From Escherichia phage CMSTMSU: a stretch of DNA of 64,000 nucleotides. The notes beneath the pieces were generated by a model. That model worked only from the letters and a program-made list of their open reading frames with translations, did no database searches and had not been told where the DNA came from. Of the stretch, positions 1-9,558 are shown one piece after another; the stretch's first letter is position 1; the number at the start of each line of letters is the position of its first letter. The stretch is taken from sequence record MH494197.1. One strand, written 5' to 3'. The translations under genes and the position numbers were made by a program.

Positions 1-221
1 AATATATAGATTTGATACTAAACGGTTAGTTGGGAATAATGTAATTCTAATCTTTGATAAATCTGGACTTACGTTTGCTTGTATATTATAATCTGTATAA
101 TCTGAATATTCAACTCGTGTAACTGGTGAAGTGCATTCAAATAATGAATCATTACTAGTTCCAACTGAATATAATCTTTCATAAATTTTCAAATTATTAG
201 CACTTGTGTAGTTAACACTTC

Positions 222-1456
222 TTAAGGTTTGACCAGAAAACCAGTAACCTTAGCAAAAGTACTCATAGTACCATCTTTAATACTACTTGTATTAACAGTA
301 TATAATGTTAAAGCCAAACCATAGTTTGCTATAGTAGTGTCTTTGCACCACACAAATACTTTATCATTGACGATATGTGCATATAATGGTTTATCTGTAC
401 CAAATGATGTAGCAGCGATAGAAGCGTGAATATGTGCAACTTCGTTAAATGTACCATTTGTTAAAGTGAAAATATAATTACTTGCACTAGATAGGCTAAC
501 TAGTAATTCATAACCATTCGTTCCGATAAACTGTTTAACATTTTCAGTACTTGGAAGAATTCTAGGATGATATTTTGATGTAGTACTGATAACACTACTT
601 TGTGTTAGTGCATCAATATTACGCAAATCACGAATGAATGCATAGTAATATCCTTCAGTACTACCATTTGTACCAGCACGTAATACCACACCAGTACCAT
701 CATCTTCGACTATTGTTGGTTGCATACGGTATACATCTGAAAGCGACGTTGCCTTCGTATGAACCATTAACGTTTAATGGTAGATAATCCATTTCTATAC
801 GGGAGATTGGTAACATATCAAGTATTTTTGAACTTCTGATCTTTTATAAATTGGATAGTCAACAATACCTGTATTTGCGTCTGGTGCTGTACCATTAAAA
901 GTACGCATAGCGTACTTTCCACCAATTGCCAAATTTCCAAGTATAGCAGCACTACCAATGATGCGTTTGGATGACATATTCTTTTCCTTTAATTACCAGC
1001 CTAATGTACCAGTTTGTGTTGGATTTCCAGTACTGACTGGGAAAGATGAACCTTTTGTGTTGTACTTGGTCTGTATGTATTGAATCGTGATACGCGTTCA
1101 ATGTTGATAGCAGTAATACCAGAAGTTCCAACGGTAATAGTCCCGATGAACATTATAATCTGTGATTCTTGTAATTGTGAAGTTGAGATTCTATAAATTG
1201 GCTCACCCAGTACTAAAGTAGCGTATACATATTGTGTTTGTGTGCCTGATGCCACTGTTGGTGCTGTCACTGCAACAACAGGGTAATTATAAAGATAGCC
1301 ACCGATGAATGCAGGTATCTCTCGGTTAAAACGTAATGAATAACCGCTTGATGTAATTGACAAACTAGATACATCATAAAGTTCACCATATTGTGATAAT
1401 GGTAAACCGTTAACAATAGAATCAACTTCATCTTTTGTTAAGAGGGGAATGTACAT
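222..1456 (-). CDS. putative tail fibre/adhesin-like structural protein (frameshift-fragmented)
   Basis: ORF fragments 1001-1456, 795-977, 222-767; S/T/N/G/Y-rich; N-terminal LPLSQYG motif and DGTGVVLRAGTNGSTEG segment paralogous to 3810-4169; function inferred from composition only. Confidence 0.3.
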
Positions 1457-1590
1457 TCCCCATTTGCGTCTGTTCGATACGATACGTCATTAATATCACT
1501 AATAGATAGTCCAGTGTTTTTATTCTGGACTACGATTTGTGACATAGCTTCGATATCGGATCTTATAATATATGCCATAAGATTAATCCT

Positions 1591-2673
1591 TTACCAATTA
1601 ATTGTTCCTGTTTGTGACGGTAGACCATAACTAACTGGGAATGAAGAACCAGCAGCTTCAAGAGACGCACCGAAAATATCCAATCTTGAACGTTTTTGTA
1701 TGTTAACATTTGATATTTGTATTGAGTTTGTTTGTATAGTACCTATCCAGAAAATATTATATGCTGTAGTACCAGTCTCTGAAATAACATCAGTTGTTAT
1801 TACATATTTTGCATTACCTTGTTCCATTTTAACATATACATGAAATAATGTGTTTGCTGGATTAGCCTTAACTGTAGTTAAGTTTATACTAGTAATCGGT
1901 AATGTAAATGCTTTACCAGAAAGAATTACTGGAGTTTCTTCTGTGAAGTACACAATAAAACCTTGAGCAACGTCTTGTGAAACTACGTTAATCGGTGCAC
2001 CTTGAGCAGTCCAGTTATTATAATCAGCAATTGTAGTACCACATTTTGGAAAGTCATTTTGTTTACATAGTCTATTGCTTGGAAATAACCAAAACCAATA
2101 CCGTAAAGCTGCTGGTTGAATACCTTGCTCATAACTTGCATGTGAACCACTGATAATAAAACTATCAAATTGTGCAGTTGCTTTTGTTACATATGCTCTG
2201 AATTGGTGTGTGTTTGTATTACCAATAGTTGGGTGAGATAATGGGTCAGAACCACCTATGAAGTAGAAAGAACCACCATCATATATTGTTAAACCAACAG
2301 AAGACGATGCAAAACTACCATTACCATTTGGTGTAAAGTTACTTCCGTAAACGTTTTCTAGTACTAAACGCTTGAAGGTAATTGTAGTGATATTACCTGA
2401 ACGTGTATTCACATTCACTTCAGCAATTCTAATATAGTTCTGATATGTATTTGTAACTGTACTTAGCATTACAAATGCAGGTATATCAGTTTGTTGTGGA
2501 ACAAACAATGTCATATCTTTATAAGCAGCAGGAGATAAGTTCCAGTCGCTTAGTACTTTGGCGTATTCAGCATTTCTGAAATTATCAAGTACAGATTGAG
2601 TAACACTAATGATACCAGTTCCGTTCATATTTTTATCATATGATAGTGATTGGGAATATCTCTGACCTACCAT
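1591..2673 (-). CDS. S/T/N/G-rich fibre-like structural protein
   Basis: intact 360 aa ORF, many NxT/S sites, Gly/Ser/Thr/Asn-rich, ends PVSYGLPSQTGTINW; no catalytic motifs. Confidence 0.35.
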   Translation of the reverse strand: MVGQRYSQSLSYDKNMNGTGIISVTQSVLDNFRNAEYAKVLSDWNLSPAAYKDMTLFVPQQTDIPAFVMLSTVTNTYQNYIRIAEVNVNTRSGNITTITFKRLVLENVYGSNFTPNGNGSFASSSVGLTIYDGGSFYFIGGSDPLSHPTIGNTNTHQFRAYVTKATAQFDSFIISGSHASYEQGIQPAALRYWFWLFPSNRLCKQNDFPKCGTTIADYNNWTAQGAPINVVSQDVAQGFIVYFTEETPVILSGKAFTLPITSINLTTVKANPANTLFHVYVKMEQGNAKYVITTDVISETGTTAYNIFWIGTIQTNSIQISNVNIQKRSRLDIFGASLEAAGSSFPVSYGLPSQTGTINW

Positions 2674-2817
2674 GAATATCCCACCATTTGTAGTAACATT
2701 ATTACCACTAATGGAACTAATAAAACTCTGTTGTTCGTGTTATCTGTCACATTAGCACGTTCTGTTGTTGGCTCATAACCTTGTATGGTTCCACGTGATA
2801 AAGAATTAAACGTAAAG

Positions 2818-4169
2818 TTAGAGTACTTTTATGAACTGCATAAGATGGACGGAATGCACCAGAACCAGTTGAACGAGAATACTGTTTAGTACTGTTCCCG
2901 GAAGCAATTCTACGCCGTTAATAAAAGAACCAACTGCTGAACCAAATGAAGGACGAACTATGCCATTTCTGAAATCAGTTGAAATGTTCGCACGTACATT
3001 AATCATGCTATATATTGATTGTGCAGTAAATTTAGCTTTCTGCATAAGTAATGGTTCTGCTAAGTTTGGACATGCAGTACAGAATACTTCACCTGTATTC
3101 AAATAATAATATGAACTGTAAATGTTTCTTGCACCGCTATGGTCATATAACGGATCGTTGTTGAGAACATTACCAGTAGCAACCAATGCCGAACCTGTGT
3201 TTGTAACAACAAATGGTGCAGCAAATGTACCAATATCGTTCCCATTATCCAAGTTACATTGTTTAGTACTCATGTTAAAATTGAAACTATAACTATGCTG
3301 TGGTCGGGTATTGTAGTTTGCCATAGTGAACCATGCGTCACCATTCATTCTGAATCGGAAGTTCTGCGTTCCGGCTCCTGAGCAACATATAAATCGATAG
3401 ATGTCATATAAATCCCCATACCAGCCAAATTTTGTGGTACATAGACATAGGGCTTATCAGCAATATTAGTTGAGTTAACATGGTCAGTAATGATCATATT
3501 ATTCTGAGCAGTATATGTAGTATTGTAAAAGTTTTTGTTGTCCACCCCGTGATTCGGGTAGCAGTATAAGTACCGTTTGCAATATTCAACACAACACGAA
3601 CAACAACAATCTGTAGTTTGTTATTTTCATTAAGGACGTTGAATACATAAACTGAACCGTCTTCTGCCATCATAGCATACTCAATCCCACCTTCAGGTGA
3701 AATATCAGCTTGGTTCACAAAAGACCACTATGTTGAGTATCATCCAATGTACCATTCGTTACTGATATAAACAACCCATTAGTATTGGTAGATGTGTCAT
3801 TGTAACGACCTAACAGTATTTTTGAATCGGTATTGTATAAACCAATAGCAACACGGTTTGCCCCAAAATAGCCGGCTTATACTGACGGCTTGTATTAACA
3901 GTACGGCTCATATCGGTAACGGATAATGCGTTCGCTAGGTAAGAATAAAATAAACCTTCAACACTACCGTTTGTACCACTACGTAATAGTACTAATGTGC
4001 CATCGTTTTCTAAAAGTATTTTGTTTCTACGTTGGGATTGGTTTTCTGATGCACCATTAAAATCACCAGATACCCCAGCAGGTAGATAGTTATGTGTACC
4101 ATAATGCGAGATTGGAAGTAAACTAATTACATCAAGTAATTCTTCTTTGGAATATGTATCAATTTCCAT
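2818..4169 (-). CDS. putative tail fibre/adhesin-like protein (frameshift-fragmented)
   Basis: fragments 3810-4169, 3494-3718, 3345-3545, 2818-3348; N-terminal LLPISHYG and DGTLVLLRSGTNGSVEG paralogous to 222-1456. Confidence 0.3.
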
Positions 4170-4322
4170 ATTACCATTAGCATCAAATACTTGATCATTG
4201 ATACCCTGTACTGTTCTTTTCCTTTAACTGTCACATTATGAGTGACGTCTAAGCCACCATATATTTTCTTTGACATACATATCCCTTGTAATTTAGATAT
4301 TAGTTACTGTATTTATGAATGT

Positions 4323-4346
4323 AATAAAAAGCACCCATTGGGTGCT
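4323..4346 (-). terminator. rho-independent terminator-like hairpin downstream of nrdG
   Basis: plus-strand AGCACCC-att-GGGTGCT stem-loop preceded by A-run (U-tract on minus strand) directly after nrdG stop. Confidence 0.5.
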
Positions 4347-4351
4347 TGTGT

Positions 4352-4820
4352 TTAAAAGTCTTTATTTTTATATAAAATTCGTTGGTTATTTGAACCACGA
4401 AATGGTAATGTTAAATTCTTTTCTTCTGAAACAAATTTACCATCAACTAATACATCTAAGTACTGAAGAATGTCTTTAGCATGATTATTCATAATCTCTT
4501 CTAAAGTATATCCACTCCAGCACCAAATAGTTTTATTGGGATAAGTTTCTTTTACAATCTTACATAGTTCTAAAATTGTTTCTATGTTCTTTTTCATTAG
4601 AGGATCTCCACCAAGGAGGGATAATCCACTAACGTAAGGCTTACTGAGTTCAGCTAAAATTATATCAATTGTATCAGTACTGAACTCTTGTCCACTTCTA
4701 TAATCCCATGCTTCTTCGTTGAAGCATCCGGCACACCCATGACTGCACCCACTAACAAAAGGGAGCATCTTACTCCCTCCCATTAATAAGGTCGTCTTTA
4801 ATTATCGTCTGGTAATTCAT
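4352..4820 (-). CDS. nrdG: anaerobic ribonucleotide reductase activating protein (radical SAM)
   Basis: CSHGCAGC radical-SAM cysteine cluster, GGDPL, IWCWSGY, DGKF, RGSNNQR motifs matching T4 NrdG; N-terminus MNYQ... recovered upstream of a 1-nt frameshift near 4785. Confidence 0.85.
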
Positions 4821-4873
4821 CTAATATTGCACTCACTATCTCAACGAGAACATCACCATGACATGATTTCGGT

Positions 4874-5104
4874 TTACAGAAACAGCCAAGACGTTTCTGC
4901 TAACTCAAGTAAATCATCAATCTTAACTTCTCCATTAGAAATACGCTCAATAATGTATTCTCTGAACTTTTCGATTGATTCTTCCCTTGTAGCAACAATG
5001 AACTCGGCTTTGGTCTGTTTATCACTGATATGGGTAAATGGGTTTCCATTTAGACCCACGCCCGATATACACATCATACGGTTCTTTATATTTGTTAACC
5101 ACAA
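4874..5104 (-). CDS. hypothetical protein
   Basis: 76 aa ORF between nrdD and nrdG on the same strand. Confidence 0.3.
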   Translation of the reverse strand: MWLTNIKNRMMCISGVGLNGNPFTHISDKQTKAEFIVATREESIEKFREYIIERISNGEVKIDDLLELAETSWLFL

Positions 5105-6956
5105 TTGGCTTTAAATCCATAATGTACCTTATTTGTGTTGTATACGCTCACAACATTCTTGTTGTTTTCCTTTGTTGAATCCACGAGACGATGGGTTCCC
5201 AAATATCCAGAAACACGACGAATCACTGAGATTGTCTTCTCATTGCGATTATCACATACTGGACAATGAAAACCGTGTTTATCTACACTGAACTCACCTT
5301 TATACCCACACTCGTAACACTGGTCAATTGGCTGGTTGATGCCAAAATATGGAATCTTTGTGTAAGCGTAATTGACTAAAGTCTCAAGTGCTTGAATATT
5401 GTTACTTAGGTTGGGTGATTCAACATAACTGATGTTTCCACCATTACTGAGGTAAGCAAATCCCTCTTCGTAACTCCACTTATCAAATGGTGAACTTTCT
5501 ACCCATACTGGTTGATGGAAGGAATTTGTGATGTAATCACGTTTTAGTACTGAAGGGTATTTAGATTCGATGCAACGTGCAAATTTGTAGCAAAGTGACT
5601 CTGCTGGGGTTCCATATAGACTAAAAGCTATATTACTCTCTTTTTGAACTCATCGCATTTTACTTTCATATAATTCAGTACTGACATACAGAACTCCTTA
5701 CTGATAGAACCAGTCAGAATTTCTGAACATTCAACTAAACCAACGTAACCAATACTAATACTAGCATATCCGTTATAAAATAGCTTGTCAATCGTTTCTT
5801 CTGCCCCTAAACGTGAAAGTGCACCTTCCATGAACAAAATCGGATTCTGCTTCGCTTTTGTGCCTTTTAAACGCTCTACGCGGTTCATCTGAGCACGATA
5901 TGCAATATTCATATGCTCGTCTATTTTATCAAAAACTCTCCATCTGAGGCACTTTCAAGAGCAATTAGAGGTAAATTGATAGAAACTACGCCTAAGTTGA
6001 AACGACCGTTATATTGCTCATTTCCATTGGAATCTTCCCATTTTCCCAAAATGAACGACAGCCCATCGGGGTTACTGCTGTACTGCTACTTCCTGTAACT
6101 TTGTGATTTAACGGCACAGAAACGAAGTCTGGGTAGATTCTCTTCGATGCACAACGCATTGCCAACTGTTTCATGTCATAGTTGCAATCATCGCTATTCA
6201 TGTTGATTCCGTCCTGTAAAAAGAAAATTACTTTAGGAAACACAGGAGTAATCTTATCTTTACCTAAACCATTCTCATGTACTTTTAAGTACTGTTCAGT
6301 GATTAATTTGCCAAATTTTGAAGTATTCAGTCCTAAACTAAGAGAAATGAATGCTGCTTGTCCGTTTGTACTAATCATTGAATTTGTCTGGTAAAGTAAG
6401 GTTTGACACCCATCATAGACTTCTTTTCGTAATTCTTCCTCAATGTATTCAGTACTGAGATTATATGCCTTTTGCTTCGCTAATAGCTTATCCCACGACT
6501 TTTGGACGTAAGGTTCAAGACCAACGTCGATATGAGCCAACGATTGACCACCGTACTGGGAACTTGCAACAGCTTGTACAATTTGTGTCAGTACTGTACA
6601 TGCTACACTAAAACTCTTTGGTTCTTCAATTTTGGCACAACCAATGGTAAATCCATTTTTAGCATATCTGGATAGTTAACCAAGCAACAGTTAGTTAATG
6701 GGCTGATATAGTAGTCTAAATCATGAATGTGACCATAACCATCATTATGCCACTGCATTAGCTCCTTTGGAATAACATCTTGTGAATAATGCTTAGATAG
6801 GATACCAGCAAGTAAATCCCTGTGTGTATTGACGCATTTCGCATCTTTGTTTGCATTTTCATTTGTAAGATCAGTATTGCTCTGATTTAGGAAATTTGTT
6901 ACGTCAGTATATAATTTATCTAATTGCATTTTACTTTCCTTGTATTTTGAAATCAT
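5095..6956 (-). CDS. nrdD: anaerobic ribonucleoside-triphosphate reductase (frameshift-fragmented)
   Basis: fragments 6603-6956, 5992-6540, 5628-5912 plus C-terminal region; glycyl-radical motif RRVSGYLG translated from about 5190-5215; total about 620 codons; frame changes at about 6540-6603 and 5912-5992. Confidence 0.85.
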
Positions 6957-7060
6957 CTGGGGTGAAGTTATTTAACATCACCAGACACCATTATAGCGTC
7001 AGAACAGGGTATTTCTATTGATCTATATCAAGGAAAGGTCACATTGCTTTTATTTGCACA

Positions 7061-7088
7061 AATAGAAAAAGCACCTCTAGGTGCTTTA
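7061..7088 (-). terminator. rho-independent terminator-like hairpin upstream of nrdD
   Basis: GCACC-tcta-GGTGC stem-loop with flanking A-run on plus strand (U-tract on minus). Confidence 0.5.
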
Positions 7089-7089
7089 A

Positions 7090-7127
7090 AGTACTGCTAA
7101 TATAAAACTGCCCAAATTAGCAGTACT
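7090..7127 (-). repeat. perfect 12-bp inverted repeat anchored on AGTACT
   Basis: AGTACTGCTAAT ... 14 nt loop ... ATTAGCAGTACT, next to the terminator at 7061-7088. Confidence 0.45.
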
Positions 7128-7209
7128 ACATTGGTTGGAGCGGCAAAAACATATATGCAGCAATAGCACTGCATCCGATTACAAGTTTAGCTAGTCTCAT
7201 CTGGACTCC

Positions 7210-7770
7210 ATGTAATAGTCACAGTAAATGTGCCTTCTTGGAAACCAAACTCATCTTGTGGGATTTGACCAGCTAATGGGTTAAATCTTGAATCGAATGC
7301 TTCATGTACGTCTCGCTGAATATCATAGAGACTTTCACCATCGTATTCTTTTTAAAGATTTCATTCTGCATTTATACGTAACGACCCTCGTATTCTGTCT
7401 GGATATCCATCAAATAGATCAATGAATTGGTTTAACGCATAAGTACTGATGAATGGATTATTCTTTGCAAGTTCTATGCGTTTTTCAAAATCCATTAATA
7501 TAATCTCTGGTCTACTGAAATTTCCTTTACGTCTATATGTTAGTAAACGCTCGGTATGACCACTGAACTGAAATTCAAAATATGTTGATGCTGCATAATC
7601 ACTTCCATCAGGAACCGGAATTGAAAAATCAACATTGAACTTATTACCAAATGCGAAAAATACCCACCATCTTCGTGTGGTATAGTTTTATCATTTAGAT
7701 GGAAATCTATTTCATCACCTAATATATCAAATATCTTGATACTTAGAGACATAAAATCATCGGCTAACAT
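7210..7770 (-). CDS. hypothetical protein (frameshift-fragmented)
   Basis: ORF 7540-7770 continues in another frame to about 7210; about 186 aa when merged. Confidence 0.3.
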
Positions 7771-7994
7771 TTTTTTACCTTATTTTATAGCTCTACAATA
7801 GAAATGAATAATATACGGAAATATAGGATTATCGACGTATGTTGCAAAATTAGCTATGGTAATTTTTTATAGTACGAGTTATGTATGGATATAATGGTTT
7901 GTGGGTCGATTGCTTCTCTATTTGATAGTTCAACAAAACGACCACACTTCATATAAGCCTTACCATAATAATCGTAAGTTATCTCATATTGATC

Positions 7995-8352
7995 CATTTA
8001 TTCTGGTTCTTTGTTTTATCTACAGTATTGTTTTGTTTAGATCAATTTGTAACGCCATTGCAGCTTCAGTATTTTCTTCATGTGTACCATTGAATTTATA
8101 CCCATTCTTGATGAGATTCACAGTGTAGTACTTATTATAAAGAAATGCCCACGACCATTGCAATTGTACCCACAATCCAAAAAGACACTGCGTTGAGGAT
8201 GAAGTAAATTACAAATGCACCGATGAACGTAATAAAGTCACCACGAAACAATGCAGGAACGGACCAAAGAACAATGTTGTCCATGAGAATCCAAAGAACC
8301 CATCTTTGCGTTGTCCTACATTTTCATTTTTAAAGAAATAGTTTTAGCCATT
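7995..8352 (-). CDS. predicted membrane protein
   Basis: manual translation MAKTIFFKNENVGQRKDGFFGFSWTTLFFGPF... with hydrophobic helices; one frameshift. Confidence 0.3.
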
Positions 8353-8578
8353 GTTGACTCCTTACATGTTATGATTTGGTATACAGTACACAAATACTAA
8401 ATTGGAAAAGTGTTCAGTACTGGAATATTTTGCTAAATCTGTTATATGGAAGTAGACATCTTTGAAATTATCATTCTCAAATGTCGTTATTTGTAAACAG
8501 TGTGTGGGTCTGAAAATATAATAATAAAATATATCATCTTCAGCCACAACTGTATGGTTTTGTAGCGTTCAATTTTTT

Positions 8579-8943
8579 TCATGTGTGAATAATTTCTTTG
8601 ACCCCATATTCCATAATTGCCAACGTACAAATCTCACAAGGCTTGGCAGGGACTGGAATACCATCTTTACTTACCCGTGCAATCAACAAAGTATGAACTT
8701 CAGCACGAGAAGCCAGCAAACATGAGATTTCAGCATGAAGAAATTCACCTTGTGGACGACCAGCACGGATTGCAAAACCTTTCTGTACTGGGTGAGTATG
8801 TGTGTAAGAATTAGTACGTGTTGCCAATACACGACCTTTCTTATCTAGTGCACGAGCAATCACACGATAACGTTTGTAGCTCCCACTTGCTCGATTGGTG
8901 GCATCCGTCGCAATTCTTCAATTAGTTTCTCAAGTTTACGATT
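8579..8943 (-). CDS. CDA-fold zinc-dependent (deoxy)cytidine/nucleotide deaminase-like protein
   Basis: HAE ... PCEIC zinc-binding signature in ORF 8579-8863; N-terminus MNRKLEKL upstream of a frameshift. Confidence 0.5.
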
Positions 8944-9135
8944 CATAAGTCTAAGTCTATACCCTTTTCAAATGATTTCTCTAGAACCCAAAGTTTACAT
9001 TCTTCACTCTCCAAATGCATCTTTGCCTCTTTCTGTTGTTCTATTGTACAAGACTTTATAAATTCACGCAAGGCTTCTATTGTACTTTTTATATTTTTAT
9101 GTCTTCCAGAATTGTTTCTTTGGCTTCAGCATCAA

Positions 9136-9558
9136 TTACAGATGAACTCCACCCGTGACGTTCTTCCCAAACTGTTTTGCTGGATTGTAAATTGATGATG
9201 TAGAAATGACTGCATGGATCTTATTAAACGTATCGTCTGCTTCTTGTTGGGTGTAATCACCATAAGTGTTTAGCACATTTTTGTATAGTTCATCGATTGC
9301 CTCATCATAAGTATCACCACCGCAATCTAACTCATAATCATGTGCTTGTACCCATTCATCATCTTGCTCAATGTACATAGGTGAGATGAATTCTACCCAA
9401 AATTGTGTCTTTGTATTCAGAGCTTTAAATGATTCAATGCGGTTTGTGATTGGACACACATCATGTGGTTCGATATCAATCCTTGGGGAACCATATCTCT
9501 GTTGATGAATTTAGGATGACCCAAAATCCACCAGTACTTTTCAGATGTAGTCATAGTA
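9136..9558 (-). CDS. hypothetical protein
   Basis: ORF 9136-9459 plus N-terminal extension MTTSEKYWWILGHPKF; acidic. Confidence 0.3.

Follow-up and report, generated by a model that had tools for sequence, protein, structure and literature searches.

Introduction

In phage phiKZ, the N-terminal domain of gp131 joins the six-helix-bundle base of a baseplate fibre, and, according to the phiKZ atlas (2026), twelve peripheral baseplate fibres are anchored by such gp131-type N-termini, with a propeller located at the gp131 C-terminus. In phage SPN3US, the proteins gp168, gp169, and gp170 constitute paralog family C, which is defined by a phiKZ gp131-like N-terminal domain; gp168 is essential, has been reported missing from a tailless mutant, and is a candidate baseplate or tail-fibre protein. 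In phage phAPEC6, the 98.6-kDa protein gp323c has been detected in virions by mass spectrometry. The subject of this article is a group of three tandem genes, the first of which encodes an orthologue of gp323c, in a 64,000-nucleotide stretch of record MH494197.1 from Escherichia phage CMSTMSU; this whole stretch is referred to as the window.

We consider it probable that the three genes form a late transcription unit whose products are paralogous receptor-binding virion proteins, most likely located at the periphery of the tail or baseplate. This reading is built on the structure and paralogy of the genes, the homology of their modules with proteins of other jumbo phages, the presence of the phAPEC6 orthologue in virions, and the predicted folds; late timing, a tail location, the oligomeric state, and glycan binding are inferred. 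The biology is unsurprising for a jumbo phage, and the family has already been catalogued as of unknown function, with sequences essentially identical to those of deposited genomes. Its members are labelled “hypothetical” in nearly all genomes of the genus Asteriusvirus, phages that are under consideration for the therapy of pathogenic E. coli, and the proteins are candidate host-range determinants.

Three Repaired Genes and Their Family

The first-pass annotation of the window described three groups of open reading frames (ORFs), rich in serine, threonine, asparagine, and glycine, that shared two motifs. Comparison with phage fEgEco12, relative to which the window carries deletions, reveals instead nine frameshifted pieces of three minus-strand genes of two sizes, which become continuous once the deleted bases are restored (Table 1). 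The repaired proteins differ from those of fEgEco12 at 5, 0, and 1 residues, respectively, and genes of 898, 195, and 909 aa are found downstream of nrdG in fEgEco12, EC.P1, and G17, where all are annotated as hypothetical. The first gene is orthologous to fEgEco12 g242, phAPEC6 gp323c, and 121Q gp499, and the second to fEgEco12 g243 and 121Q gp500; in the part of the third gene that lies in the window, four deletion events (7 bases) were restored.

Table 1. Features of the three-gene locus and its upstream spacer, in window coordinates.
Feature	Position	Strand	Remark
Long paralogue 1	1591..4276	minus	898 aa after 10 deletion events (11 bases) restored
ORF pieces of long paralogue 1	4169..3810, 3718..3494, 3545..3345, 3348..2818, 2673..1591	minus	
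Short paralogue	993..1578	minus	195 aa after 2 single-base deletions restored
Long paralogue 2 (g244 orthologue)	1..977	minus	first 328 of 909 codons; gene cut by window edge
LPISHYG motif, paralogue 1	4098..4118	minus	start of module common to jumbo phages
LPLSQYG motif, short paralogue	1385..1405	minus	
DGTLVLLRSGTNGSVEG segment, paralogue 1	3954..4004	minus	
DGTGVVLRAGTNGSTEG segment, paralogue 2	651..701	minus	
C-terminal tail of paralogue 1, FPVSYGLPSQTG then on to terminal W	1606..1641	minus	conserved
C-terminal tail of short paralogue, FPVSTGNPTQTG then on to terminal W	1008..1043	minus	conserved
Intrinsic-terminator-like hairpin, AAGCACCCAATGGGTGCTT then T run	4329..4347	minus	from terminator scan; ends nrdD–nrdG unit
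T4-type late-promoter-like word, CATAAATAC	4309..4317	minus	about 33 nt upstream of first gene’s ATG

The compositional bias is genuine, as these four residues make up 36–37% of the proteins and 24.8% of the other minus-strand ORFs in the window. Both motifs are also present, but neither occurs in all three genes, each being confined to two: the DGT segment is lacking from the 195-aa gene, and the third gene, as read in an intact relative, carries LPISRIG rather than LPxSxYG. The invariant columns of the DGT segment in paralogue 1 are D92, T94, L98, R99, G101, T102, and G104. Across the family, the helix with the LPxSxYG motif and the C-terminal tail are among the most conserved parts (...SRF..YR.S....G..FPVS.G.P..TG..W).

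The proposed paralogy stands. The two long proteins align from end to end with 26% identity (E 2e-53), and this similarity therefore reflects true homology rather than chance, while the similarity of the 195-aa protein to each of them lies at the N-terminus and in the final ~120 residues. In CBB, GAP32, fHe-Yen9-04, and pEa_SNUABM_47, the middle gene is of full length, so that three tandem paralogues of ~900 aa follow nrdG. When a profile of the short protein is compared with CBB_148, residues 1–77 (1.4e-16) and 797–916 (2e-43) are matched, which indicates that the short gene corresponds to the middle paralogue minus ~720 residues. A search with the module through 1.84 billion representative proteins returned 496 clusters, with lengths around 190–250 and 890–990 aa and with the C-terminal domain at the extreme C-terminus in nearly all of them; the short forms are a regular class within the family.

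The long proteins match PHROG 3573 over their full length (g242, 7e-263; g244, 1.6e-230), and g243 matches PHROG 26864 (9.5e-84); both are jumbo-phage families of unknown function. When the three proteins and six relatives were scanned against Pfam and NCBIfam, no family reached significance, and sequence and profile searches of the PDB, including one with SPN3US gp168 as query and in a copy recent enough to hold the phiKZ cryo-electron microscopy chains, gave no match. The paper describing fEgEco12 makes no mention of g242–g244. Homology was also considered for RaK2 gp098, which is known as a secondary receptor-binding protein; it was set aside, with no sequence comparison made, on its size (595 aa) and different reported architecture.

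Between fEgEco12 and G17, the three proteins share 85%, 72%, and 73% identity, with 52–68% in the middle of the third protein, compared with 97% for nrdD, 88.5% for nrdG, 92% for the next gene downstream, and a value within 88–97% for the DUF4326 protein encoded between nrdD and nrdG. This greater divergence fits, if weakly, a role in interaction with the host.

Homologues in Chimalliviruses

A profile of the long paralogues matches the Agricanvirus proteins DM_20 (1.5e-145) and DM_19 (9e-109) over the whole module, and the 420-aa DM_18 in its C-terminal domain only. In SPN3US gp168, residues 558–866 and 1298–1403 are matched (E 3e-26), and residues 55–870 of g242 align with positions 540–1376 of PHROG 7449, the gp168-type profile (5.4e-37). 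Homology with DM_19, DM_20, and gp168 starts at profile positions 46–57, and the window proteins begin ~45–55 residues before the module held in common with the chimalliviruses. From that point, the Agricanvirus proteins gp18–gp20 (DM_18–DM_20) and gp168 are homologous to the window proteins from LPxSxYG, through DGT..LR.GTNGS, to the C-terminal beta-sandwich, and in Agricanvirus the genes are likewise tandem paralogues that include a short form, DM_18. The chimallivirus proteins differ in having an additional gp131-related N-terminal domain and, in some cases, C-terminal extensions. A phmmer search using phiKZ gp131's N-terminal domain finds the N-terminus of DM_19 (2.8e-12), as well as DM_18, gp168, and gp169. 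As judged from these alignments, a relative of the gp131 anchor domain precedes the module in the fused proteins of the chimalliviruses, whereas the module stands alone in the RaK2-like phages.

The link to phiKZ itself is indirect and runs via DM_19, which combines a gp131-like N-terminus with the module of the window proteins. The phiKZ gp131–gp135 proteins resemble those of the window in being tandem paralogous virion proteins that include a short paralogue, gp132 (110 aa); the distal part of gp131 is a propeller, a fold predicted from generic matches for the long paralogues. The shared module would link the adsorption apparatus of RaK2-like phages with that of phiKZ-like phages.

The chimallivirus loci lie at 613–8924 in Deimos-Minion (L005) and at 4366–9549 in SPN3US (L004). 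DM_18 has no parts other than a gp131-like N-terminal domain and the C-terminal sandwich, which makes it a counterpart of the 195-aa gene, and the GenBank label “putative membrane protein” carried by DM_18 and DM_20 looks wrong.

Virion Association

In addition to phAPEC6 gp323c, two groups of homologues bear on virion association. CBB_148 and CBB_149 are annotated as “structural protein” in GenBank. In three Eneladusvirus phages, liquid chromatography–tandem mass spectrometry of ghost particles revealed “hypothetical proteins” of 99.7, 99.0, and 97.3 kDa, with peptide counts that are alike; the masses computed for the three pEa_SNUABM_47 paralogues (99.8, 99.1, and 97.2 kDa) agree with these values.

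In the phAPEC6 record (MK817115; L003, 10443–13250), no coding sequence is annotated where the second and third paralogues have their orthologues (240118–242923 of MK817115), and a tblastn search finds the 195-aa gene in MK817115 with 72% identity. If the annotation served as the search database, the products of the unannotated genes would have been undetectable in the published virion proteome.

Predicted Structures

The AlphaFold2 model of a long paralogue, computed from an alignment of 38 sequences, has a predicted local distance difference test score (pLDDT) of 83.7 and a predicted template modelling score of 0.78, and comprises 62 strands and 5 helices. The first-pass annotation called the proteins fibre-like; the model is globular and all-beta, and not fibrous. 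Residues 1–75 and 866–898 are of low confidence, and the DGTLVLLRSGTNGSVEG segment of paralogue 1 is covered by two model strands (95–102 and 107–114). The C-terminal tail of paralogue 1 is predicted to be disordered in the monomer and yet is nearly invariant across the family; such conserved but disordered termini fit a role in contacts among subunits or with a partner protein.

The middle part of the long model includes a predicted beta-propeller of the lectin/glycosidase type, probably 5- or 6-bladed, for which the fold matches are generic. The two best matches are fucose-type lectins, with similar scores, and six-bladed fucose lectins (AofleA and AAL), and 5- or 6-bladed glycoside hydrolases or phosphorylases (GH43, GH130, and sialidases) are all matched at the level of fold only, with 5–12% identity. 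Among viral models, Foldseek retrieves “virion structural” and “minor tail” proteins of jumbo phages. The gp131 crystal structure is not among the best 60 fold matches of the long-paralogue model.

In the short paralogue, an N-terminal segment that contains a helix and LPLSQYG is followed by a beta-sandwich domain and the conserved C-terminal tail, and the sandwich is modelled with confidence (pLDDT 88–96 over residues 71–160). The best fold matches of this C-terminal sandwich are chains of phage receptor-binding or tail-fibre proteins and the type VI secretion system protein TssK. The sandwich can be superposed on lactococcal phage p2 ORF18, SPP1 gp22, and TssK, and the phage 1358 receptor-binding protein belongs to the same set of matches, all of them being per PDB chain and not per domain. 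The element common to p2 ORF18, SPP1 gp22, and TssK is an N-terminal “shoulder” domain that serves in trimerisation and baseplate docking. The resemblance has its limits: identity is ~10%, without any sequence-level relation to the window proteins; the sandwich is C-terminal in the window proteins and N-terminal in the siphophage receptor-binding proteins and TssK; and, unlike the siphophage proteins, the long paralogues carry a module of ~720 aa between the helix-plus-motif part and the sandwich. The T4 proteins gp34–gp37 are comparable in general role, as late host-recognition proteins encoded by adjacent genes, but they form an elongated trimeric fibre, in contrast with the globular fold predicted here, and no T4 fibre protein occurs among the sequence or fold matches.

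Transcription of the Locus

The hairpin that follows nrdG is kept in phAPEC6, G17, CBB, and fHe-Yen9-04, and it is an annotated terminator in G17, where a further terminator is annotated after the third gene. Between this hairpin and the first gene lies the word CATAAATAC. The pattern HATAAATAC occurs once in the 64-kb window, against 6.2 occurrences expected, and this one occurrence is located exactly upstream of the first paralogue. In the orthologous spacers, phAPEC6 and G17 have TATAAATAC, whereas CBB and fHe-Yen9-04 have AATAAATAC; five genomes thus carry, ahead of the first gene, a hairpin and a word composed of T, C, or A followed by ATAAATAC. Neither strand of the window contains the T4 late-promoter octamer TATAAATA, with 11.8 ± 3.4 occurrences expected. 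In RaK2, which has an annotated gp55-type late sigma factor, a check of the 60–110 kb region located TATAAATA upstream of three genes, those for lysozyme, the baseplate hub, and gp098, at a distance of 36–50 nt.

The avoidance of TATAAATA and HATAAATAC elsewhere suggests that the word is a functional signal and that the remaining window is early or middle territory. We infer that CATAAATAC acts as a promoter and that the three genes would form a late transcription unit of their own, apart from nrdG; if so, the strand shared with the enzyme genes says little. The genes are indeed co-directional with nrdD and nrdG, as first noted, but the contrast drawn with the opposite orientation of the T4 tail-fibre genes carries no weight: ORFs of at least 90 aa in the window lie on the minus strand, save a few short ones, and every large ORF in the 64 kb does so. 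Structural genes are scattered around genomes of this kind (phAPEC6 Figure 2 legend).

A second hairpin, at 7068–7087 upstream of nrdD, has a stem in common with the one at 4329..4347 (AGCACC...GGTGCTTT), and none is expected by chance; the former is palindromic enough to match on both strands. The space between nrdD and nrdG is occupied by a gene of the DUF4326 family (4798–5120, minus strand) that runs into the start of nrdG, an arrangement kept in fEgEco12, G17, and phAPEC6.

Proposed Architecture and Alternatives

The first-pass suggestion of receptor-binding or glycan-binding virion proteins fares well apart from the fibre fold: virion proteins with a role in host recognition are very probable, in view of the phAPEC6 virion protein, the homology with gp168, the fold matches of the sandwich, and the propeller. 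A long paralogue of ~900 aa begins with a poorly modelled N-terminal segment, followed by the helix and LPxSxYG; its globular all-beta middle of ~700 aa, with the predicted propeller, is a candidate glycan-binding head, and the C-terminal beta-sandwich of ~100 aa is followed by the nearly invariant tail of ~30 aa ending in tryptophan. The 195-aa middle gene encodes the same protein without the propeller part of ~720 aa. The subunits may oligomerise and attach to the virion by means of the sandwich domain and the conserved termini, while the propellers may bind host surface polysaccharide.

Several observations weigh against this assignment. In RaK2-like phages, the experimental evidence is of presence in whole virions rather than of placement on the tail. 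The phmmer search with gp131 gives no match to g242, g243, or g244, such that the window proteins, unlike their chimallivirus counterparts, are without the gp131-type anchoring domain and without any direct sequence match to phiKZ gp131–gp135; conversely, the family profile matches none of the 21 phiKZ proteins tested, gp131–gp135 included. The detection of phAPEC6 gp323c is weak (4 peptides, 5.6% coverage), CBB_147–CBB_149 are named neither in the main text on CBB nor in the mass-spectrometry table that forms part of it, and the Eneladusvirus proteins are identified by agreement in mass only. The models are of monomers, in which the conserved N- and C-terminal segments are not confidently modelled, and the promoter word of this lineage, CATAAATA, is one mismatch away from the T4 consensus.

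A more specific arrangement can be put forward only tentatively, in which the three tandem paralogues would make up one obligate, putative heterotrimeric receptor-binding protein joined by a shoulder-like domain. The shoulder-like domain would be split by the propeller insertion of ~720 aa in the long subunits, the 195-aa protein, and DM_18 for Agricanvirus, would act as a “headless” subunit that has been conserved, and the number of different propeller heads on each complex would be two, rising to three in CBB and Eneladusvirus. Such an arrangement is suggested because three genes are found in each lineage examined and the Eneladusvirus trio shows similar peptide counts, and because the short form has a precise breakpoint and the lengths are bimodal across about 500 clusters.

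As a rival to the receptor-binding reading, the paralogues could build the “hairy” whisker filaments that phAPEC6, CBB, and fEgEco12 display on capsid and tail sheath, in which case they would join head to tail via their termini. No gene products have been assigned to the hairs of phAPEC6 and CBB, the paralogues are virion-associated, and their termini are strongly conserved, though the monomer models leave them unstructured; filament formation from head to tail has moreover been suggested for phage Goslar and its unrelated DUF7941 proteins, a module described by its authors as restricted to chimalliviruses. However, GAP32 contains all three homologues, and, if GAP32 is hairless, the hair genes are expected by the CBB authors to be missing from it. 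In Agricanvirus and SPN3US, the family is fused to a gp131-type domain, which anchors baseplate fibres in phiKZ, the model is of a globular protein of ~100 kDa rather than a filament subunit, and no significant Pfam family is found in the proteins or their relatives, although the presence of DUF7941 in the Pfam copy used is unconfirmed. We therefore regard whiskers as unlikely products of these genes.

The propeller could also be catalytic, in which case the paralogues would be virion-borne glycan-degrading enzymes, or depolymerases. The fucose-type lectins at the head of the fold matches and the low identity to the matches speak against catalysis, as do the few invariant charged residues and the absence of a glycosidase family in the Pfam and NCBIfam scans; a search of the proteins for the sialidase Asp-box found none. 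Depolymerase activity seems distinctly unlikely on this evidence.

It is very improbable that the three genes encode non-structural proteins co-expressed with the nucleotide-metabolism genes: they do follow nrdD and nrdG immediately and share their strand, in an order kept across RaK2-like phages, but an orthologue is present in phAPEC6 virions, a conserved terminator and a late-promoter-like word intervene between nrdG and the first gene, and the folds and homologues are of the tail or receptor-binding type.

Origin of the Frameshifts

Positions 1–8000 of the window share 98.7–98.8% identity with the jumbo coliphages EC.P1, Turkey3, WPEC3, fEgEco12, and Ecwhy_1, and ~83% with the phAPEC6/G17/121Q group of the genus Asteriusvirus. 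Alignment of this region with fEgEco12 yields 62 substitutions and 36 indel events, and all 36 indels are deletions in the window, nearly all of them in homopolymers or at CCWGG. The nrdD, DUF4326, and nrdG genes are frameshifted by deletions of the same kind as those in the paralogues. As the events are all deletions of this pattern and strike the enzyme genes as well, the fragmentation is technical, not biological. The CMSTMSU genome (386 kb; reads deposited as SRP158495) is a Canu draft assembled from MinION data only, and the error pattern is that of uncorrected nanopore data. The ORFs are truly interrupted in the window sequence, but it is hardly credible that they represent pseudogenes or programmed frameshifting in hypervariable fibre genes, given the uniform direction and context of the 36 deletions, the equally affected nrdD and nrdG, the intact genes in seven near-identical genomes, and the unpolished state of the draft.

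For a phage with an nrdD gene, the window has unusually short ORFs, and the deletions probably run through the whole window, breaking most other genes too; any ORF-based interpretation of the window requires prior repair of the frameshifts. A group I intron was considered as the cause of the break in nrdD and rejected, the breaks being single-base homopolymer deletions.

Non-homopolymer deletions occur at CCWGG at 3873, 3372, 2899, and 2102 (minus-strand gene coordinates), for example, CC[T]GG, CC[A]GG, and AC[CT]GG. Dcm-methylated sites are a known source of nanopore miscalls. The deletions at CCWGG suggest that the phage DNA carried 5-methylcytosine at Dcm sites.

The sequencing artefact has already spread into public protein and structure databases in the form of separate “proteins”. 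A 151-aa CMSTMSU database protein (“UNVERIFIED_ORG”) is 100% identical to the short paralogue where covered and has the length of the window ORF 1001..1456. The BFVD/UniProt fragments A0A2Z5HF58, A0A2Z5HF77, A0A2Z5HH06, and A0A2Z5HGE6 (360, 119, 74, and 168 aa) have their own predicted structures, and three of the four (those of 360, 119, and 74 aa) match lengths of broken ORFs of the window, with 93–98% identity.

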